The position numbers and the translations under genes are program-made. The notes under the pieces were generated by a model, which ran no database searches, was not told the origin of the DNA, and saw nothing but the letters and a program-made list of their open reading frames with translations. Shown in pieces: positions 1,072 to 15,205 of a DNA stretch of 15,432 nt (position 1 is the first letter of the stretch; the number at the start of each line of letters is the position of its first letter). The stretch is taken from NCBI GenBank assembly GCA_023129265.1, contig JAGMCJ010000194.1, positions 1 through 15,432 of the forward strand, written 5' to 3'. This stretch comes from Thermoplasmata archaeon (GTDB lineage: Archaea > Thermoplasmatota > Thermoplasmata > RBG-16-68-12 > JAGMCJ01).

Positions 1072-4000
1072 TCAGACTCCAGCAAAGCCGAAGACCACAT
1101 CGGATGAGACATTGAGCTTCAGGGTGACAAACATCGCGAATTCCCTGTCGTACACCCCAACCTCCATGGCCGGGATATGTGGAACCCACCTCGACTCGGA
1201 GTGCTTGTACCAGAGGATGACAAGCGCGTTCATGACGTAGTCAGTGTAGTACGAGACGTTCTGATATGCGTACTGCCCGTTCGAGAACGGCTTCAGGGGA
1301 AGCGAGATGGCTTGATAGCCCTGCGTGAAGCGTCCAATCCATATGCCTGAGCTGTAGCTACCAGAGCCTTGGCCGAGCGAATCGCTCAGCGGGAAAATCA
1401 TGTAGTAGAACTCGTCATAGGGTTCGAAGAAGGCGTTCACGTGATCCACGCTGACCACGGGGCCCACCGGAGGCACGAAGGAACTGTACAGCGACCAGTA
1501 ATCCAGCCCTAGTTCTCCATAGAACCCAACTCTGCTGTTCGAATAGTAGATGTCATACGCGTCAGAGCCAACGGGCTGTAGCCAGGTAACCCTGATGTTG
1601 TTGCCCACAATGCTGAGCTCTACACTCTTGGCGTTTCCCGTGTGGTCAAAGCCGCCAAAGAGGAGCTCATCGTACCTGATCATGGTCCCGGGCAGACCCA
1701 CGAATATGAAGCGCACGTCGGACCCAAGTTCCACCACACAGCCATCGCCTATCGCGATTGTTCTGACAGGATCGCCACCGCCAGGAACCCTCAGCCAGTG
1801 CTCCGCCTCCATGTATTCGACGTAGTCTGCACCGAGCGCGGCCCGGTACTCCTCCGTGGTGTCCGTTCGAGCTGGCCCATCATACTCGACCCATGGGAAG
1901 TAGTCCAGGGGGATCGAGAATGTGTTGAATCCTGCGGAGAAAGTGTTCGTCCACGCGCCCGCCGTGTTGCTGGTCTCGCTGATGTCGCTCTCGTTCGCAT
2001 TCGCCGCTCTTATTAGGTAATAGTACTCACCGTCATGGCTGGCTGCTCCTCCCGCTTCTGGGTCCACCCAGTCGGTCGTCCCCGCCGGAACCACGTCATA
2101 CGCCGCGGCGGGAGACAGGTCTTGGAACCCGTTCTGGGTGAGTGACCTGAAAATGAGGTAATGATCCAGTTCTGGCCAGGGTGCCTCGACCCACCTGAGA
2201 CCTATGTCAGCTCCTCCGTCCCAATATGTCTCCACATTCTTGGGCGGGGCGGCGTAATAGGTCACCGTGATCATGACAAGAGGGAAGGGTACAACGGTAT
2301 GGTTGCCGTCCCATTTCACATATGCAACGCGGGCATCGGGATAGACTCCCACGGGATTAGTGCCAACGAGGTCGGAGGTGACATCGTACTCAACCTCCCA
2401 GGTCTCATTAATCGCCAGGGAGCTGACATTCCACTGCATGAATGTGAACACGCCCCTGTTGCCCATGTAGTGCGGGAGTTTTGGAAGACCCGAGGAAGGA
2501 TTGCGGAAGGAGCCGGTTACGAGGTGTATATAGGATGGAAGGACGTCCTCGATCATGGGAGAGTTGTCGGAGACATCCAAGTCCCGACCCGCCACCTGAT
2601 CGACTATCGTTCCGATCTGCTTGTAGATGCCTACCAGATCCTCGGGCGTCTCGGCGTAGAAGTACTCACCCTCGGTTATGGCGGCGATGTTCTGTAGCAC
2701 GGCGTGCTGGGCATCTGAACCCAGACCAATCGTGTAGATGACTACGTTGTTGGCTGCAGCGTTCTGAGCCTCAGTGATGGGATCGAGACCTGAATTGCTC
2801 TTCCCGTCCGTTAGAAGAATACATACCCAGATATGGTTCGGGTCAGCATCCGACACGAGGTCATTCCAGCATGCATATATTGCGTTTCCAATTGCGGTTC
2901 CTCCGACCGGAACAAGAACACTGTCTATGTCTGCCTTAATCTGCAGGTAATTCGTGCTGAGCGGGTTAATTCGCATCACAGAAGTGTCGAAGAATATCAC
3001 AGCACCCTGGTCGGGTAGCTTCATGTCGTCGACGTAGCTCTTTGCGCCTAGCTTGGCATAATCGAATTTCTCGATTGGCCAGTTCATGCTGCCGGACTTG
3101 TCTATGAGGAAAATGACATCCTGGGGAACGGACCTGATTACCCCAGAGCCTTGGCCAGTGACAGATAGCAGGACAGTCGCGACGGTTGGGTAGCCGGGAC
3201 CCGCGTTTTCGTGGAATATCGTGGACGGTGCCACGCTTTTCACAGGCTCGATGTGGGGATATACTCTCACGAGAATACTTGCACTGTCCGATGCCAGTGT
3301 GGTTGATGATGCCGTGCCAGTGACAATGACCGACTGATAGTTCCCGACTGGGGGGCTTGAGGGGACGTTCACACCGATCTTGAACTGCAGCGATTGCTCC
3401 GGACCGAGAGGTCCAGAATCCGGAATGCCGTCACCGTCTCCTGGGGAGTCCATCAGGGGGAAGATTCCATCGTCCTGCAGTATCTCAATCGTCCAGTTGT
3501 TCGGTGCGCTCGTTATCGTTATGTCGATGTAGTCCGAGATAAGTTGCTTGTTTGTCACCGTTAGATTCAGGAGCACTCGTTCTCCGACCTCCCCGTGAGT
3601 GTCGTGGTCGGGGCCCAGCACCACCAGCGCGAGTGTGGGAGCCATGTCAAACCTCCAGCCTGCGTTGGTGGAGCTGGTGTCATCGTAGCCATCGGAGGTC
3701 CCATTGCCGTCGGGCACTCGGCTCATAGAGAATCCCTGTGAATGCAGAGAGCTCCATCCTGCCATGTCAAGCAGCTGACCCGTTGAATCGTAGAGGTAGA
3801 CATTATCTGCCAGGACGCCCATGGAATCGAAGAACCCCGAGTCCATTGGATACCTCAACACGTAGTGCGGATTGGCTTCGGTAAGGGTGATTCCGCCCAC
3901 GAGGTATTCCTGATTGGCGACAATCGTGTAGCCCAGCAGACTGATGGAACCGGCACCTCTGTAGTAGACCTCCACATATGCTTCGTCAGCAACATTCGGG

Positions 4001-5766
4001 AAGTACAAGATCTCATTGAGTACGAGTTCTGGGTTCCCATCAACGCCTGGAACGCTGTTGTCTGCTCCGAATGTCGGAACCTCTTCCCGGACCCATTCAT
4101 CCGTGTAGCCGTTGCCCACCCTGCGCCTCGAAACGGACTCCCCCCAAAGAGGGTCAGGCGCTGTTCCCATCTGACCATATCCGACTTCGTCTATGAAGGT
4201 CAGGCTCACGGGGTCAAACAGGAAAAGTCTGGCACCTTGGTCGCCCAGGTTGAGTGGAATGACCAGGTCCGCAGAAGGGTCGTCGCCAAGCGTCCTGTAC
4301 TCAAGCGAAGGTATAGTCCCCAGTGCCGTCAAGGAATAGAGCTGGGTATCGTCGACTTGAAGTACATATCCGTTCAGGTCAACTGGTTTGGAGCCGAAGT
4401 TGTATATCTCCACGAGTTGCGCGTTGTTGGGTGCATCCCTCAGCTCGGTAATCAGGATTTGCCCCGTATCGTAAGAGGAGAAGTAGACCTCATAGAAAGT
4501 CTGGCTTCTAAAATCATTCCAAGCAATGAATATGCCGAATGTCCCCAAAGCCATCGATGGGTACTGCTGTGTTGATGAATCGTCCAACGGATCGCCATTC
4601 TCATCGGTATCATCCACACGTAAGTCATTGCCGTTCATGATTCCGTCTCCCCATGTAGTGCCCCCGTCCTCCGAGTATGAAAAGAATATGTCTGGATCGC
4701 CGGCCCGGTTGTCGCTCCACGTCACATATAGTCCTCGCGGTCCAGAGACTATGCAGGGGCCAGTGTATGAAGTCGAGGATGCGTAGTCATCCACCTTGAC
4801 AGGGCTGGACCAAGTATTCCCACCATCCGTGGATCTCGAGTGGCTGATTTGCCTCTCTCCTGAGGGATTGTTGTAGTACCATACGGCGTGAAGAATCCCG
4901 GTGGTGTCTGCTGCAACGTCAAGATGCCTGAGAATGGAACCCGAAGGTTCGGCGAAAAGAACGTGAGGTGTCCAAGTGGTGGACCCTAGGTCTGATGAGT
5001 CGGCAATCCAAAAGGTCGTGAAGCTAACATCCTGCTCCCTCCAGGACACGTGAATCTTACTACCAGCGGTGGTTACAGACGGAAATGCATTTATCGATTC
5101 TTGGGTGGAGATCTGAACCTCTGGCTCAAAGCTGAAGCCCCCGTCCGTGGACTTGGACACAAAGACGTGGTCGTACGAAGGATTGCGATCATCGAACCAA
5201 ACAACGAAGAGATTCCCGGAAGAACCAACACCGACATCTGGCTCCCGACACCTTGTGTTTTGTGAAGCAGTGTCCACTTTCACCGGGGCCGACCAAGTCG
5301 CTCCTGAATTGGATGAATAGGTCGCAAATATGTGAATTCCGCCTGCCATCGAAGACTCCTGCCAGGAGACATATATTCGATTATTCATGGCGCCCCCAGT
5401 TCTGTCGATGGCAATGGAGGGCAAGCGAGAATTGGCGCCATGAACCCCAGAATCTATTCTAATCGATGATGACCAACTCGCCCCTTCGTCAGTCGACTTG
5501 GAATAGTAAATTCCATAATAGCCCGTTCTGTTGTCAGACCACACAATGTGAATAACTTCGTTTCCATCAACAGCGACGTCGGGACTCCAGGAGTTCGCTG
5601 ATCCATCGTCCACTTTCTGATTAGGGCGACTGAAGGATTTGGTGAGATGAATCTCTGGTGTATCATCACTCGCGACGACAACCAGGCTTGTTATCATGAG
5701 AATCGTAGAAATGAGAGCAAACAACCTACAATAGTCACACCAAACGCTGGATGCCGCGTCCTTCAT
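1072..5766 (-). CDS. Giant secreted/anchored surface protein: BNR (Asp-box) beta-propeller + 2 lamin-tail domains + Ig-like domain + vWA (MIDAS) + duplicated C-terminal module
   Basis: Single uninterrupted ORF; the track gives 1072..5799, which starts at a TTG. I prefer ATG 5766 (Met12), which is directly preceded by GGAGGAGGAG. The N-terminus MKDAASSVWCDYCRLFALISTILMITSLVVVASDD looks like a signal peptide or membrane anchor. Asp-boxes: SKSTDEGASW, YSSNSGATW, SKSTDGGFSF, SRSTDGGNTW, SYSEDGGTTW. LTD-like motifs: ILITELRDAPNNAQLVEIYNFGSKPVDLNGYVL and LVLNEILYFPNVADEAYVEVYYRGAGSISLLGYTI. vWA: VIFLIDKSGSM...GGTAIG...ILLTDGKSN. Residue numbers below count from the TTG at 5799. Confidence 0.9.
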   Translation of the reverse strand: MKDAASSVWCDYCRLFALISTILMITSLVVVASDDTPEIHLTKSFSRPNQKVDDGSANSWSPDVAVDGNEVIHIVWSDNRTGYYGIYYSKSTDEGASWSSSIRIDSGVHGANSRLPSIAIDRTGGAMNNRIYVSWQESSMAGGIHIFATYSSNSGATWSAPVKVDTASQNTRCREPDVGVGSSGNLFVVWFDDRNPSYDHVFVSKSTDGGFSFEPEVQISTQESINAFPSVTTAGSKIHVSWREQDVSFTTFWIADSSDLGSTTWTPHVLFAEPSGSILRHLDVAADTTGILHAVWYYNNPSGERQISHSRSTDGGNTWSSPVKVDDYASSTSYTGPCIVSGPRGLYVTWSDNRAGDPDIFFSYSEDGGTTWGDGIMNGNDLRVDDTDENGDPLDDSSTQQYPSMALGTFGIFIAWNDFRSQTFYEVYFSSYDTGQILITELRDAPNNAQLVEIYNFGSKPVDLNGYVLQVDDTQLYSLTALGTIPSLEYRTLGDDPSADLVIPLNLGDQGARLFLFDPVSLTFIDEVGYGQMGTAPDPLWGESVSRRRVGNGYTDEWVREEVPTFGADNSVPGVDGNPELVLNEILYFPNVADEAYVEVYYRGAGSISLLGYTIVANQEYLVGGITLTEANPHYVLRYPMDSGFFDSMGVLADNVYLYDSTGQLLDMAGWSSLHSQGFSMSRVPDGNGTSDGYDDTSSTNAGWRFDMAPTLALVVLGPDHDTHGEVGERVLLNLTVTNKQLISDYIDITITSAPNNWTIEILQDDGIFPLMDSPGDGDGIPDSGPLGPEQSLQFKIGVNVPSSPPVGNYQSVIVTGTASSTTLASDSASILVRVYPHIEPVKSVAPSTIFHENAGPGYPTVATVLLSVTGQGSGVIRSVPQDVIFLIDKSGSMNWPIEKFDYAKLGAKSYVDDMKLPDQGAVIFFDTSVMRINPLSTNYLQIKADIDSVLVPVGGTAIGNAIYACWNDLVSDADPNHIWVCILLTDGKSNSGLDPITEAQNAAANNVVIYTIGLGSDAQHAVLQNIAAITEGEYFYAETPEDLVGIYKQIGTIVDQVAGRDLDVSDNSPMIEDVLPSYIHLVTGSFRNPSSGLPKLPHYMGNRGVFTFMQWNVSSLAINETWEVEYDVTSDLVGTNPVGVYPDARVAYVKWDGNHTVVPFPLVMITVTYYAAPPKNVETYWDGGADIGLRWVEAPWPELDHYLIFRSLTQNGFQDLSPAAAYDVVPAGTTDWVDPEAGGAASHDGEYYYLIRAANANESDISETSNTAGAWTNTFSAGFNTFSIPLDYFPWVEYDGPARTDTTEEYRAALGADYVEYMEAEHWLRVPGGGDPVRTIAIGDGCVVELGSDVRFIFVGLPGTMIRYDELLFGGFDHTGNAKSVELSIVGNNIRVTWLQPVGSDAYDIYYSNSRVGFYGELGLDYWSLYSSFVPPVGPVVSVDHVNAFFEPYDEFYYMIFPLSDSLGQGSGSYSSGIWIGRFTQGYQAISLPLKPFSNGQYAYQNVSYYTDYVMNALVILWYKHSESRWVPHIPAMEVGVYDREFAMFVTLKLNVSSDVVFGFAGV
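2605..3126 (-). other. von Willebrand factor A domain with complete MIDAS motif (aa ~892-1065)
   Basis: DKSGS is encoded at 3088-3102 (verified codon by codon). Downstream GGT-AIG and LLTDGKSN supply the Thr and Asp MIDAS ligands. The alternating beta/alpha pattern ends at YTIGLG...LQNIA...GEYFYA...DLVGIYKQI. Confidence 0.85.
3640..4464 (-). other. Two lamin-tail-domain (LTD)-like modules (aa ~446-545 and ~590-720)
   Basis: Both modules open with the LTD hallmark (I/L)-(T/N)-E-(L/I)...x-(V/Y)-(E/V)-(I/V)-Y-(N/Y)-x-G...(L)-x-G-Y-x-(L/I). Domain boundaries are approximate. Confidence 0.6.
4480..5622 (-). other. BNR/Asp-box (sialidase-like) beta-propeller region of the giant protein (aa ~60-440)
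   Basis: Five to six S-x-D-x-G-x-(T/S)-W Asp-box motifs at roughly 50-60 aa spacing. Each follows an (I/V)-x-(V/I)-x-W strand motif: IHIVWSDN, IYVSWQES, LFVVWFDD, IHVSWREQ, LHAVWYYN, LYVTWSDN. Confidence 0.75.
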
Positions 5767-5835
5767 AGCTCCTCCTCCGAGGAAGGTATTGCAGCACAAA
5801 CGGTAGGTCTCCGCCTCCGTCTCTGCCCACTGTGC

Positions 5836-9335: not shown

Positions 9336-9883
9336 CCAGTAGGGCAACGGTGTCATCGCAATTTGTGGCAAAGAAGATAACCGAGATCCTCGCGAACGGG
9401 GATGAAAAGACAATCGAGGAGATCATCAAACTCCTGCTGAACTCCGACAAGGTGTTCATCTATGGTGCCGGCAGGTCCGGCCTGATAGGAAAGGCCTTCG
9501 CCATACGCCTGGTTCAGTTGGGCCTCAAGGTCTTCTTCATCGGTGAGACAACGACCCCAATCGTTGAAGACACTGATGTTGCGCTAATCATCTCGAACAC
9601 GGGCGAGACAATGTCTGCGATCCAGACGGCGAACATCATCAGGCGCGTGGGGGCAAAGGTGATAGTGATGACGAGCAGGAAGACTTCCAAGCTCGCACAC
9701 GCCGGTAACATAGTTGTCACTCTGAATCCGGAGCTAGATGATGAGGCCGTGGCTCTCGCCCCGCTTGGCACGCTTTTCGAGGATTCCACGCTCGTATACT
9801 TGGATGGAATCGTCGCGTATATCATGGAGAAGAGGAACGAGACGGAGTCCAAGATGAGAGGAAGGCACGCTATTTGGGTTTGA
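9332..9883 (+). CDS. hxlB: 6-phospho-3-hexuloisomerase (SIS domain, RuMP pathway)
   Basis: KVFIYGAGRSGLIGKAFAIRLVQLGLKVFFIGETTTPIVEDTDVALIISNTGETMSAIQTANIIRRVGAKVIVMTS...PLGTLFEDSTLVYLDGIVAYIMEK...RHA closely follows the PHI pattern (G-x-GRSG...FAMRLMHLG...VGETTTP...SGSGET...P(L/M)GT-FE). Its ATG overlaps the upstream stop (ATGA at 9332-9335). Confidence 0.8.
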   Translation: MTSRATVSSQFVAKKITEILANGDEKTIEEIIKLLLNSDKVFIYGAGRSGLIGKAFAIRLVQLGLKVFFIGETTTPIVEDTDVALIISNTGETMSAIQTANIIRRVGAKVIVMTSRKTSKLAHAGNIVVTLNPELDDEAVALAPLGTLFEDSTLVYLDGIVAYIMEKRNETESKMRGRHAIWV

Positions 9884-10508
9884 GCGGGAGCTTCTTCATC
9901 GGTCCGTATGGATTTTCGTACTCCTCCCAGTAGACCGCGAAAGGTGCGGGGACACATTTCTCCCCAGAGAGCGTAAAGGCCTCAATCTGCAGCTCCATTG
10001 GGTCCAGGACGATTGCGAAGTGGAACTCCTCCCGAAACATGCGCCGCTGCGTTCCGACGTCCTTGGGTGACATGAAGCAGGTGTAACCAGGGTGGGAGTG
10101 GTACCAACCGACAATAATGTAATCGAAATCCGCCTCGTCGAGGCGATCAAAGAGCGTTTCGAACCCGTTCCTGTCGAAACTCACGGAAACGCCTGATGCC
10201 TGGAGGTCCGTTGTAGCGACGTCCTTGACCACGGTGTAGGGTTTTGCTGAGTGAGCGAAGACATCACCGAGTAGCAGACCCAGGGCTTCCAGATTTTGCT
10301 TCCCGGAAGAGATGCTGTGATCCCTCATCTTTGCCTCGGCGGTCTTCGAAACGTACAAGGGAAGCGGCCCTGTTCCCGCGAACGCTTCCTCGACCTCTCT
10401 CCTCCTCTCCTCCTTGAGCCAGTAATGGGACCTGGAGCGCTCTTTCGGCGGTGGCGCCCTTTCCAAGATAGCTCTCTTCCTTTCACTCACAACGCGTGGG
10501 CGCTTCAT
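9870..10508 (-). CDS. JAMM/MPN+ metalloprotease (Rpn11-like deubiquitinase/isopeptidase candidate)
   Basis: Complete JAMM signature: E74 in NLEALGLLLG, then H137-S-H-P-GYTCFM-S-PK-D150 (HxHPx6SxxD, encoded at 10059-10100 and verified). The ATG is 3 nt after the E2 stop. The first ~45 aa form a highly basic extension (KRPRVVSERKRAILERAPPPKERSRSHYWLKEERRRE). Confidence 0.88.
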   Translation of the reverse strand: MKRPRVVSERKRAILERAPPPKERSRSHYWLKEERRREVEEAFAGTGPLPLYVSKTAEAKMRDHSISSGKQNLEALGLLLGDVFAHSAKPYTVVKDVATTDLQASGVSVSFDRNGFETLFDRLDEADFDYIIVGWYHSHPGYTCFMSPKDVGTQRRMFREEFHFAIVLDPMELQIEAFTLSGEKCVPAPFAVYWEEYENPYGPMKKLPLKPK

Positions 10509-10511
10509 GGA

Positions 10512-11030
10512 TCATCCCAAAACCCTTGGCTTCTTCCCTGAACCCTCCATCACATTCGGCGGGCTGTAGCCGTGAGTGTTGAAGTACTGTGCGGCACGCG
10601 TACACGAATCACTGCCGAAGGGGTTCGCAGGGTTAGGACTGGTAAGCAGCGTTTCGATTCCTTTGACGAACGTGAGCAGGGTCGAGCTGAAACTCCAGTC
10701 ATCCAAGAGCTTCGTGCAGACGTATCCGCCATCATCAGGAAGCATGATGTTGGGATGGAATATGTCCGACCTCCATTTGACGATGGGTTTCTCGTACGGA
10801 TACTCTTCAGTTATCAGAATCGACAGCTTGTGCGTATATCGATGCCTTATCGTGTCATCCTTCCAGATGGGTCCAGGGGTCTTCACGAGAGTGACGTTGA
10901 CTTCCATGGGAAAGGACTGAAGCGTCGGATCAGAGACCGAAACGGCGTGCCTGAGATTCCTTTGACACAGCAGAACTTCGTTCCTCACGCGGAACCTCAA
11001 GATGTCCTTCGGCAGCCCCATGAGCCGCAC
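10512..11030 (-). CDS. Ubiquitin-conjugating enzyme E2-like protein (UBC fold)
   Basis: HKLSILITEEYPYEKPIVKWRSDIFHPNIMLPDDGGYVCTKLLDDWSFSSTLLTFVKGIETLLTSPNPANP. This carries the HPN triad (10749-10757), catalytic Cys105 (10716-10718) about 10 residues later, W-S-x(3)-L and the LL-x-PNP-x-x-P motif, in eukaryotic E2 spacing. The track start is a GTG directly abutting the Ubl stop; ATG at Met4 is an alternative. Confidence 0.85.
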   Translation of the reverse strand: MRLMGLPKDILRFRVRNEVLLCQRNLRHAVSVSDPTLQSFPMEVNVTLVKTPGPIWKDDTIRHRYTHKLSILITEEYPYEKPIVKWRSDIFHPNIMLPDDGGYVCTKLLDDWSFSSTLLTFVKGIETLLTSPNPANPFGSDSCTRAAQYFNTHGYSPPNVMEGSGKKPRVLG

Positions 11031-11276
11031 CTAGCCGCCCTCGGGGTCAGGTATCAGCTCGACCACGTCTCCCTCGCGGACCTCCGCTTCCACGATTGTA
11101 GACTGCCCGCGCAGAACTGCCTTGCCGCGACGGAGGACATAGGCACCTGGAGAGACCTCCCAGTAGCTGGCCGCGCTCTCGATTATCTCTTCCACAGTAT
11201 TCTCGGCCTCCAACTCCATCTCGACCGAGGACCCTGTTTCCGCGTTCTTCACTGTGATTCTCGTTGTCACAATCAC
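11031..11276 (-). CDS. Small ubiquitin-like beta-grasp modifier ending in Gly-Gly-stop
   Basis: 79-81 aa: (V)IVTTRITVKNAETGSSVEMELEAENTVEEIIESAASYWEVSPGAYVLRRGKAVLRGQSTIVEAEVREGDVVELIPDPEGG*. The strand-strand-helix-strand pattern is consistent with a beta-grasp fold. The C-terminal GG (11034-11039) is followed directly by TAG. GTG start at 11276, or GTG 11270 with GGGGGA 6 nt upstream. It lies between the E1 and E2 genes. Confidence 0.8.
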   Translation of the reverse strand: MIVTTRITVKNAETGSSVEMELEAENTVEEIIESAASYWEVSPGAYVLRRGKAVLRGQSTIVEAEVREGDVVELIPDPEGG

Positions 11277-11331
11277 TCCCCCGTACTGTTATTGACAGAG
11301 GCGTTCTTAAAGGTTTTCGGAACTGACACAT

Positions 11332-12123
11332 CTAGCGTTCGACGTGATGAGGGCAATCCGGGTTCTTTGAGATCTCGAGGGTCTCTGAGACGTTTCTTAG
11401 GCCGTCGTAATAGAAGACATTGGACAAGACAGTCTCCGCTCTCCCAGACGCGATCTTGAGGGCCTCTCTCACCTGGACCGCCGAGACTATGCTCGTTGTC
11501 GTAATCTCTGCGGCGACCTTGGGCTCGTAGAACGTCACATCTTCGCCGGTGCAGCTGAACCTGAGTTCCATGATTTTCGAGTGTGTCTTGTTCATTCCGC
11601 ACTGAAGACAGGCCGTTTCCGGTGGAAGGACGACTTGCACCTTTCCAATCAGCCCGTCCATCGCTCCATCGATGTAGGGGATGCCTTCGTTGTAGCAGTG
11701 AGCGTTCAGGTGGAGTCTTGTGGCCACGTTGTCCAGGCAGCCAAGGACCATCGAATGGGAGGGGATGAAATCCTCAGGCAAATCCTGGATTCTGTCCGTG
11801 TAAGATGTGATCTTGACCGCAGGGTCGAGTTCCATCGCTCTTCCTGCAACGACTTCGGCCTTGAGCCGCCTCGCTTCGGAATCCTCCTCCCGGAAGAATA
11901 CGCACCGGGTCAGATTGGACTTGGCAACATGGTCCATATCGACAAGACTAATCTCCGCGAAGCCCGCCAGAACCATGTCCTTGACGACTTCGTTGCCAAG
12001 AGCGCCTGCTCCGACGACGAGAACTCGAGCCGTTCTGACCGCGTCCATGTCTATCCATGGGATTCTTCTCATTCTCTCGTGTCTGTCCCGCTCGACAAAA
12101 TCAGCATCGATGGACTCCCCCAT
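11332..12123 (-). CDS. E1-like ubiquitin/Ubl-activating adenylyltransferase (ThiF/MoeB/UBA family)
   Basis: RVLVVGAGALGNEVVKDMVLAGFAEISLVDMDHVAKSNLTR contains the GxGxxG loop (11995-12012) and the D-x-D...SNL-x-R adenylation motifs. CLQC forms a zinc pair (aa 172-175), with C-P-H-H at 257-260. A Cys191 sits in FSCTGED, between the zinc motif and the TTTSIVSAVQVREALKI helix, which is the crossover-loop position. Confidence 0.88.
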   Translation of the reverse strand: MGESIDADFVERDRHERMRRIPWIDMDAVRTARVLVVGAGALGNEVVKDMVLAGFAEISLVDMDHVAKSNLTRCVFFREEDSEARRLKAEVVAGRAMELDPAVKITSYTDRIQDLPEDFIPSHSMVLGCLDNVATRLHLNAHCYNEGIPYIDGAMDGLIGKVQVVLPPETACLQCGMNKTHSKIMELRFSCTGEDVTFYEPKVAAEITTTSIVSAVQVREALKIASGRAETVLSNVFYYDGLRNVSETLEISKNPDCPHHVER

Positions 12124-12142
12124 ACTGCCAGGAAGGATTCGG

Positions 12143-12152
12143 AGATATTAAT
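12143..12152 (-). promoter_or_regulatory. Candidate TATA element for the E1-Ubl-E2-JAMM operon
   Basis: Minus strand reads GAAAAGGATTAATATCTCC about 25 nt upstream of ATG 12123. This spacing would give a leaderless or near-leaderless mRNA. Confidence 0.3.
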
Positions 12153-12233
12153 CCTTTTCACACCTGGAAGAACCGTGGGAGAAAGTGAGAGAGAAACGTT
12201 ATTATGATATTGCCTCATTCAGAGACGACTCGT

Positions 12234-14914: not shown

Positions 14915-15205
14915 CTACACTTGGGAAATCTTGGATCTCCCCTGAAGACTGATCTTGTAGGGCATCCTTAGGATCTTCAAAACGTAGCTGGCTCGGTTCA
15001 AGGCTTCGAGCATCTTCATGACCCGGCTCAAGTCACCGATATCGAACTCCTTCTCTGATAGCGGATAGACGAGCCTGTCCCCCCGAACCCTCCAACCGTA
15101 GGGACGTGTTGCGGAAACGACAGACCGCGGTGGATTCTTCGCTCCCTCAACCCTCAACTCTAGATAGGCGCCAGATATCATGATTTCAGCCATTATGTAG
15201 AGCAT
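14915..15205 (-). CDS. Hypothetical small protein (92-96 aa)
   Basis: ORF MLYIMAEIMISGAYLELRVEGAKNPPRSVVSATRPYGWRVRGDRLVYPLSEKEFDIGDLSRVMKMLEALNRASYVLKILRMPYKISLQGRSKISQV. Composition looks protein-like and no competing ORF on the other strand. I do not recognise a family. Its stop abuts the pheS stop (convergent). ATG 15193 is an alternative start. Confidence 0.5.
   Translation of the reverse strand: MLYIMAEIMISGAYLELRVEGAKNPPRSVVSATRPYGWRVRGDRLVYPLSEKEFDIGDLSRVMKMLEALNRASYVLKILRMPYKISLQGRSKISQV

Follow-up and report, generated by a model that had tools for sequence, protein, structure and literature searches.

A stretch of 15,432 nucleotides (nt), positions 1 to 15,432 of contig JAGMCJ010000194.1 of a Thermoplasmata archaeon (assembly GCA_023129265.1), was analysed, and this stretch is called the window here. 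On its minus strand, it carries a cassette of four genes that encode an E1-type activating enzyme, a ubiquitin-like modifier (Ubl), an E2-type conjugating enzyme and a JAMM metalloprotease (Table 1). Our analysis makes it likely that this cassette is a chromosomally resident, vertically inherited system for the conjugation and deconjugation of the Ubl in Thermoplasmatota archaea. The identity of the four proteins, their predicted folds, the conservation of their active sites, their linkage and their phyletic spread have been established computationally. In the survey of the E2 family, one genome per GTDB species was scanned, and relatives of the E2 were present in 274 species genomes. Unless another number is given, counts of loci refer to the best 80 of these 274 E2-bearing species loci, and the residue alignments of the E1 (56 orthologues) and the JAMM protein (62 orthologues) were drawn from the same 80 loci; the E2 and the Ubl were each aligned with 45 homologues.

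By its profile, its predicted fold and the spacing of its HPN triad and cysteine, the E2 appears to be a member of the catalytically active UBC/E2 class. A first-pass annotation of the window, made from the sequence alone, had described an HPN triad, Cys105 and a block of the form W-S...LL-x-PNP. The triad (residues 92-94), Cys105 and the W-S pair (W112-S113) are indeed in place, but the spacing has to be corrected: the segment LLTSPNPANP (128-137) reads LL-xx-PNP (E2 residue numbers, including that of Cys143 below, count from a GTG codon at 11030). The Pfam family UQ_con matches the protein at 1.7e-14 with 54.1 bits (cut-off 27), and a phmmer search against the PDB found 239 E2 sequences at E<0.01. 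The eukaryotic E2-C, Ubc13 and Rad6 were at the top (1e-12 to 1e-10), and Cys105 was aligned with the catalytic cysteine of 2E2C. Identity to eukaryotic E2s is 21-29%; the Caldiarchaeum E2 is 28% identical (E = 1e-8). The UBC fold assigned to the protein, which was 172 amino acids (aa) long in the first-pass annotation, is borne out not only by the profile score but also by an AlphaFold2 model built on the 45 homologues (pLDDT 88.7, pTM 0.81). The modelled topology of helix 1, a beta-meander and two C-terminal helices corresponds to this fold, and the top 50 matches in a Foldseek comparison with the PDB are all eukaryotic E2s (probability 1.0, template modelling (TM) score 0.57-0.73). The residues H92, P93, N94, C105, W112, P132, N133, P137 and C143 are invariant in the 45 homologues. 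The last of them is a second invariant cysteine of the E2 (about 10593-10595, minus strand), it lies in a DSCTRAA motif in helix 3 and is kept in 45 of 45 homologues.

The sequence of the JAMM protein points to an Rpn11-like MPN+ metalloprotease. Its best relatives in the PDB are yeast and human Rpn11 (1e-14 to 1e-12), the Rpn11-like protein 6FJV of Caldiarchaeum (3e-12) and CSN5 (1e-10); no structure of an archaeal JAMM1/desampylase reached E<0.01 in this sequence search. The JAB model of Pfam, which is of the eukaryotic type, matches at 2.6e-12, and Prok-JAB at 8e-05, below its cut-off. The pattern E...HSHP-x6-S-x2-D, from which an MPN+ protease had been proposed, could be confirmed (E74, HSHP 137-140, S147, D150). 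E74, H137, H139, S147 and D150 are the predicted zinc-binding and catalytic residues, and they are invariant in the 62 orthologues. At the N-terminus, the protein has a basic extension of about 50 residues.

For the Ubl, the predicted structure suggests a ubiquitin/SUMO-type beta-grasp modifier that is mature as encoded. The ORF (open reading frame) for a beta-grasp-like protein of 81 aa ending in IPDPEGG was found as proposed, and the AlphaFold2 model (pLDDT 88.1) has the topology beta-beta-alpha-beta-beta-beta. Its best Foldseek match is Caldiarchaeum ubiquitin (6FNO_D, TM score 0.86, probability 1.0), followed by SUMO, ubiquitin, NEDD8, ISG15 and Hub1. A profile match to the ubiquitin-like or ThiS/MoaD families had been expected as well; here, the scores are marginal (YukD, 27.1 bits with a cut-off of 27.0; ubiquitin, 20.4 with 25.4; ThiS, 18.2 with 22.5), and it is the predicted fold that answers the expectation. 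The C-terminus reads ...R-EGDVVELIPDPE-GG. Among the 45 homologues, G80 and G81 are invariant, and the tail ELIPDPEGG is invariant or nearly so. In 58 of 78 orthologous Ubl genes the stop codon follows directly on GG, and in the other 20 about 1-10 residues lie beyond it. Such tails resemble the pro-form pattern of conjugatable Ubls as it is known for ubiquitin, Caldiarchaeum ubiquitin and BilA. In a ranking of seven syntenic genes by conservation, the Ubl came first in 29 of 32 loci, with median identities in the 32 loci of 65% for the Ubl, 60% for the E2, 55% for the E1, 54% for ribosomal protein L18e and 44% for the JAMM protein. A conservation that exceeds even that of L18e is to be expected for the Ubl because a modifier has many partners.

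The E1 is, as judged from its motifs and alignments, a single-domain adenylating enzyme of MoeB/ThiF architecture, with Cys191 on a short crossover loop as the candidate thioester site. It had been annotated as a ThiF/UBA-type protein, and its motifs hold up residue by residue: GAGALG at 38-43, DMD at 62-64, SNLTR at 69-73, CLQC at 172-175 and Cys191. ThiF of Pfam matches at 6e-51. In the PDB sequence search, the active adenylation domains of human UBA1, SAE2, UBA7 and NAE are the best matches (1e-28 to 1e-21, residues ~30-180), ahead of MoeB (1e-20) and ThiF (2e-19); however, only MoeB and ThiF align over the full length. In an alignment with UBA3, a 26-residue loop with Cys191 takes the place of the Cys-domain insert of about 85 residues, NPDCP of the E1 falls on KENCP of UBA3, and CLQC and C257-P fall on the zinc motifs. 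The zinc site consists of C172, C175, C257 and H260. The protein ends at residue 263, three residues past the second zinc motif C257xxH260, and with no further domain behind this motif, the E1 lacks a C-terminal ubiquitin-fold domain; a catalytic-Cys insertion domain was not found either in the UBA3 alignment and the PDB search. Its orthologues have lengths of 246-271 aa. In the 56 that were aligned, the following residues are invariant or nearly so: G38, G40, G43, D62, D64, S69, N70, L71, R73, C74, C129, C172, C175, C191 and H260, and C257 is retained in 55 of them. With catalytic residues that do not vary in any of the 45 to 62 orthologues compared, the features of the cassette are far beyond chance.

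The genes are closely linked. The Ubl gene lies directly 5' of the E2 gene in 78 of the 80 loci, the JAMM gene directly 3' of it in 78, and all three adjoin each other in 77. The E1 gene is found upstream of the Ubl gene within the locus in 56 cases, directly adjoining in about 50. In 49 of 77 related loci, but in only 2 of 80 coding-sequence controls, an element resembling the consensus of an archaeal promoter (B recognition element (BRE)/TATA-like) is present 32-47 nt 5' of the Ubl gene. This resemblance suggests that the Ubl, E2 and JAMM genes may form a transcription unit of their own from which the E1 gene is separable, and the three genes thus fit the picture of an invariant transcriptional core. 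A similar BRE/TATA-like element, AAAAGGATTAATAT, is present at about 12140-12160 on the minus strand, some 20-30 nt before the ATG of the E1 gene. In one clade (loci L004, L015-L018 and L022), genes are inserted between the E1 and Ubl genes, which are 0.9-2.1 kb apart; here, too, the E1 is therefore separable from the Ubl-E2-JAMM core. The insert at L004:6195-7604 (CP070767.1) consists of two opposite-strand genes, for a 263-aa repeat protein similar to prenyltransferases and squalene-hopene cyclases and for a 153-aa protein.

The E2 and JAMM activities are also linked by gene fusion. Proteins in which both are fused exist among the relatives (P0244 and P0259), and such fusions are Rosetta-stone evidence for a functional link. 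P0244, which is not encoded in the window, combines UQ_con, JAB and a zinc ribbon, and its JAMM motif has decayed to HSAP. P0259, also from outside the window, combines UQ_con, JAB and a PQQ-like beta-propeller and has a histidine in place of the catalytic cysteine of the E2. From these replacements, each fusion looks as if one of its partners is catalytically dead. In a further family of about 230 aa (P0269, P0272, P0278, P0288, P0291 and P0284), the first 75 residues or so form a Ubl-like domain in which the 'SYW' motif of the cassette Ubl recurs, and a UQ_con/UEV-like domain that lacks the catalytic cysteine is fused to it; P0284 is a tandem double E2.

The arrangement in the window agrees with that in the related loci. 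The four co-directional ORFs of the first-pass annotation were all found on the minus strand, and among the ORFs of the window there is no extra gene between or beside them. Of the three gaps reported, those of 55 and 3 nt hold. That of 0 nt between the Ubl and E2 genes rests on the GTG start codon of the E2 and does not stand: since homologous E2 proteins open with M-x-L-P and since the public records contain the 169-aa product with the ATG start and no entry for the 172-aa product with the GTG start, we have moved the start to 11021. This ATG is most likely the true start, and the gap is then 9 nt. At its 3' end, the JAMM gene has a 14-nt overlap with a convergent SIS-domain gene.

Table 1. 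Position of the cassette genes and of the promoter-like element in the window
Feature	Position	Strand	Basis or remark
E1 (ThiF-type, 263 aa)	11332..12123	-	ORF and Pfam
Ubl (81 aa, ends ...ELIPDPEGG-stop)	11031..11276	-	ORF and predicted fold
E2 (169 aa, ATG at 11021)	10512..11021	-	Pfam and fold; 172 aa if GTG at 11030
JAMM/MPN+ metalloprotease (212 aa)	9870..10508	-	Pfam and PDB search
BRE/TATA-like element GAAAACCTTTAA	11307..11318	-	~35 nt upstream of Ubl start

An E1 of this architecture next to a small beta-grasp protein might also be mainly a sulfur-carrier pair of the ThiS/MoaD/SAMP/Urm1 type that serves tRNA thiolation or cofactor synthesis, with conjugation being secondary or absent. 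The full-length alignment of the E1 to MoeB and ThiF and the weak ThiS, MoaD and SAMP matches of the Ubl would fit such a role, and Makarova and Koonin are said to have described the archaeal SAMPs and Urm1 as dual-function proteins in 2010. We nevertheless consider this explanation improbable. The E1, the Ubl and the JAMM protein score far under the NCBIfam equivalog cut-offs for ThiF (117 vs 275), MoeB (111 vs 266), UbaA (93.9 vs 450), SAMP1 (15.2 vs 60), MoaD and the desampylase (25.7 vs 130). Ubiquitin and SUMO come first in the fold search with the Ubl, with no ThiS, MoaD or SAMP structure among the 50 matches listed, and the E1 has no rhodanese domain. Moreover, the HPN/Cys E2 and the Rpn11-like JAMM protein, which are strictly co-conserved with the pair, have no role in sulfur transfer, and E2-JAMM fusions exist.

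In a collection of 5.8 billion proteins we found 352 relatives of the E2, and the named ones among them all come from metagenome-assembled genomes (MAGs) of uncultured Thermoplasmata, Thermoplasmatota or 'Euryarchaeota RBG'. The names on the 80 loci are almost all those of Thermoplasmata, Thermoplasmatota, Methanomassiliicoccales or generic archaeal MAGs, and closed genomes with the cassette include CP070767.1, CP070736.1, CP070732.1 and OY970070.1. When 1.84 billion cluster representatives were searched exhaustively with HMMER (E<=1e-10), 65 clusters were obtained, in which more divergent E2s of the active type from Methanomassiliicoccaceae, Methanomethylophilaceae and Candidatus Sysuiplasma are present as well as the E2-JAMM fusions; one nearest-outgroup E2 comes from a Theionarchaea MAG. 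The proteins of the window themselves are 98-100% identical to those of contig JAUWZK010000003.1 of MAG GCA_030615325.1 (locus L006) and of related metagenome scaffolds.

Since eukaryotic proteins are the best solved relatives of the E2, the JAMM protein and the core of the E1, one might suspect a eukaryotic contaminant, a recent transfer from a eukaryote to an archaeon, or decayed remnants without a function. Contamination and recent transfer can be ruled out because the genes are organised as an operon, resemble eukaryotic ones only distantly and belong to a broad family: they are intron-free and tightly spaced, they are flanked by archaeal housekeeping genes on contigs that reach 2 Mb and include closed chromosomes, the E2 shares just 21-29% of its residues with eukaryotic E2s, and its family extends over 274 species genomes. 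Decay is contradicted by active sites that are invariant in the orthologues of the 80 loci and by the constraint on the Ubl, which exceeds that on a ribosomal protein; a spread of frameshifts or of lost catalytic residues over most orthologues was not seen. Taken as a whole, we hold this explanation to be extremely improbable.

The cassette is embedded among housekeeping genes, as the first-pass annotation had stated. On one side, it is flanked by a class Ib aminoacyl-tRNA synthetase gene (Trp/Tyr type, the trpS-type gene of that annotation) and pheS, and on the other side by the SIS-domain gene, a gene for a TIM-barrel protein similar to AP-endonuclease-2 and xylose isomerase, and the genes for L18e, L13, S9 and RpoN. 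This synteny (trpS, pheS, SIS, AP-endonuclease-like, L18e/L13/S9) is kept from 100% down to about 55% identity. The second of the two distinct genomic contexts in which the cassette occurs also consists of housekeeping genes: in locus L068, which is without E1, the Ubl-E2-JAMM triad lies among XPD, MetAP, Sua5, lysS, a MiaB-like gene and Csl4.

This setting bears on the idea that the cassette might be a Bil-like antiviral system in which the Ubl is attached to proteins of phages or viruses. Bil (BilABCD, operon type 6C/CEHH) is an antiviral system with a CEHH E2 and a multidomain E1 (Chambers et al., PMC10557695). The cassette has the same four types of components, i. e. an E1, an E2, one beta-grasp Ubl and a deubiquitinase of the JAB type that may likewise pre-process the Ubl, and like Bil it may do without an E3. 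In addition, there are weak PADLOC matches of the E1 to Cap2 E1-E2 models of CBASS (1e-12) and of the JAMM protein to JAB models. However, the E2 of the cassette is of the HPN type, and its E1 is one domain of 263 aa. The two conserved contexts, including that of the second clade, are unlike patchy defence islands and differ from the sporadic occurrence of Bil, no relative of the cassette was found among the viral contigs of IMG/VR, and in PADLOC neither the E2 (best E = 0.026) nor the Ubl has a significant match. A membership in Bil or CBASS was rejected as the PADLOC matches were only the generic ones to Cap2-type E1 and JAB models. The earlier view that the system is resident rather than part of a defence island is thus supported by the conserved housekeeping synteny, by the IMG/VR result and by the generic nature of the PADLOC matches, and an antiviral role of the Bil kind seems quite improbable to us.

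Several neighbouring genes were recorded along the way. A gene for a protein of 405 aa follows the JAMM gene in 37 of the 80 loci and was weighed as a possible fifth component. We dismissed it, as the protein looks like an extracellular one with a signal and a transmembrane anchor, rich in NxS/T sequons, and as the gene is absent from the window. In the largest clade, this gene lies co-directionally between the JAMM and SIS genes, and the representative L031:7225-8442 (+) has no Pfam match, an N-terminal hydrophobic segment and a C-terminal transmembrane anchor. These traits mark it as probably an extracellular glycoprotein outside the cascade. At 1072-5799 (-), the window encodes a protein of 1575 aa with BNR-like, lamin-tail (LTD) and von Willebrand A domains, which is likely to be secreted or exposed on the surface; its position is kept in close relatives, and on related contigs a large CARDB-domain protein comes next after it. 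An ORF of 96 aa without a Pfam match abuts pheS at 14915-15205 (-), and a gene is called at the same place in L006-L008. The tRNA and Rfam scans of the window gave no match.

The best-studied archaeal relatives of the cassette are the Caldiarchaeum/Asgard operons, which encode ubiquitin, an E1, an E2 and a small RING-finger E3, with an adjacent Rpn11 (Nunoura 2011; Hennell James 2017, PMC5654768; Fuchs 2018, PMC6043591). Their E1s carry a ubiquitin-fold domain, and the systems include RING E3s. The cassette shares with them the organisation in an operon, the canonical UBC-fold E2 with HPN and cysteine, the Rpn11-like JAMM protein and a modifier with a C-terminal GG, and the pro-peptides of some of the related Ubls are paralleled by that of Caldiarchaeum ubiquitin. 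It differs from them in the 263-aa E1 with a short crossover loop and without a C-terminal ubiquitin-fold domain; in the RING E3, of which our pattern search of 89 loci, with the limits given below, found none either among the cassette genes or in the surrounding 6 kb or so; and in the sequence of the Ubl, which is much further from ubiquitin. Moreover, the JAMM gene is part of the operon whereas that of Caldiarchaeum is divergent from it, and the hosts are Thermoplasmatota rather than members of the TACK or Asgard archaea.

Systems without a RING E3 have been described before. Bacterial operons of E1, E2, Ubl and JAB genes have been catalogued (Iyer, Burroughs & Aravind 2006, PMC1779556), and prokaryotic JAMM proteins that are nearer to Rpn11 sit in operons with homologues of ubiquitin, E1 and E2 (Fuchs 2018, PMC6043591). 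Supplementary Note 4 of Hennell James 2017 (PMC5654768) describes an archaeal 'Cluster III' whose short E1s are akin to those of bacterial operons and whose E2s are reported to group with bacterial E2-like proteins. The cassette resembles Cluster III in its short ThiF-like E1, which has no C-terminal UBL domain and is clustered with the E2, Ubl and JAB genes. It appears to differ in its E2, which has the full eukaryotic signature HPN...C...W...PNP and eukaryotic best matches in the PDB sequence and fold searches. With the SAMP/UbaA/JAMM1 and Urm1 systems, the cassette has in common an E1 of MoeB architecture with a cysteine in the crossover loop, a small beta-grasp modifier with GG at its end, and reversal by a JAMM protein. 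Sampylation, however, works without an E2, whereas a conserved E2 is part of the cassette; the UbaA, SAMP1 and desampylase scores are far under the cut-offs, the JAMM protein is like Rpn11 and not like JAMM1, and the model of the Ubl matches ubiquitin and SUMO first. The cassette thus falls outside each of the characterised systems, and it clearly belongs to a known kind, the operon-encoded prokaryotic E1/E2/Ubl/JAB conjugation systems.

The claim to novelty must be worded with care. In searches of the literature on Thermoplasmatota, Thermoplasmata, Methanomassiliicoccales and Sysuiplasma in combination with ubiquitin, we found no characterisation of the system, and its sole mention is a deep 'Ca. 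Thermoplasmatota E2' clade in the E2/UEV tree of a 2023 preprint. For one euryarchaeote of Marine Group II, Grau-Bové et al. report RING and UCH genes only. In the NCBI records of the window (MCK43676xx), the E1 is labelled 'ThiF family adenylyltransferase' and the other three proteins are labelled 'hypothetical protein'. PGAP and IMG, however, label many of the orthologous E2s in other MAGs 'ubiquitin-conjugating enzyme E2'. The strong novelty that had been claimed in the first-pass annotation was therefore overstated: relatives of the E2 in 274 species genomes, the PGAP and IMG labels, the clade in the preprint and an already described class of E3-less operons all stand against it, as they show that databases contain the family already and that there is bioinformatic precedent for its class.

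We propose that the MoeB-shaped E1, as a homodimer, would adenylate Gly81 of the Ubl and hold the modifier as a thioester on Cys191 of the crossover loop. The Ubl may then move by transthiolation to Cys105 of the canonical HPN-type E2, which would place it on target lysines either directly or via an E3 encoded elsewhere. The Rpn11-like JAMM protein is expected to take the Ubl off its targets again and, where the Ubl of a relative extends past GG, also to uncover the GG end.

Several points weigh against such a conjugation cycle. All chemical steps, the targets and the physiological role are those that we infer by homology with the Caldiarchaeum, eukaryotic and Bil systems. The likeness of the Ubl to ubiquitin is visible by predicted structure alone, the Pfam and PDB sequence scores being marginal even with a profile of 45 sequences, and the E1-Ubl pair may have a side role as sulfur carrier. 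The E1 lacks the ubiquitin-fold domain, the part that recruits the E2 in the E1s of eukaryotes and Caldiarchaeum, and 15 loci in which the upstream sequence extends over 1.5 kb or more carry no E1 at the locus. Finally, a regular expression run over ORFs of at least 40 aa, within about 6 kb of the cassette in 89 loci, detected no RING-type E3, but this is a crude pattern that a divergent RING or U-box protein could escape and that was not extended to whole genomes.

Beyond the conjugation and deconjugation system as such, it is tempting to speculate on a wider role, although we put this forward as a tentative possibility that is rather less likely to be right than wrong. The cassette might represent a minimal E3-free pathway with an E1 that lacks the ubiquitin-fold domain, inherited vertically through much of the Thermoplasmatota including the relatives of the Methanomassiliicoccales and Sysuiplasmatales. 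E2-dependent tagging that is reversed by an Rpn11-like enzyme would then extend beyond the lineage of TACK/Asgard archaea and eukaryotes, the cassette might reflect a stage before E3s in which a MoeB-shaped E1 passes the modifier directly to a canonical E2, and the Ubl might serve proteostasis or translation as a general housekeeping tag.

At present, E1-E2-(E3) ubiquitylation is traced back to TACK/Asgard archaea or to defence operons that occur sporadically in bacteria. In the cassette, an E1 of the simplest possible kind is found together with a canonical HPN E2, a ubiquitin-fold modifier and an Rpn11-like deubiquitinase. No E3 is linked to the set, which is fixed in the core genome of a large phylum of euryarchaea. 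Should the cassette be active, it would provide a tractable model of four proteins for the charging of an E2 by an E1 without ubiquitin-fold domain, and it could show whether direct conjugation by E2s preceded the E3s. Moreover, there would be more lineages to weigh in reconstructing the ancestry of ubiquitin, and a previously unrecognised layer of protein regulation would be present in abundant archaea of sediments, groundwater and the gut, including relatives of methanogens.

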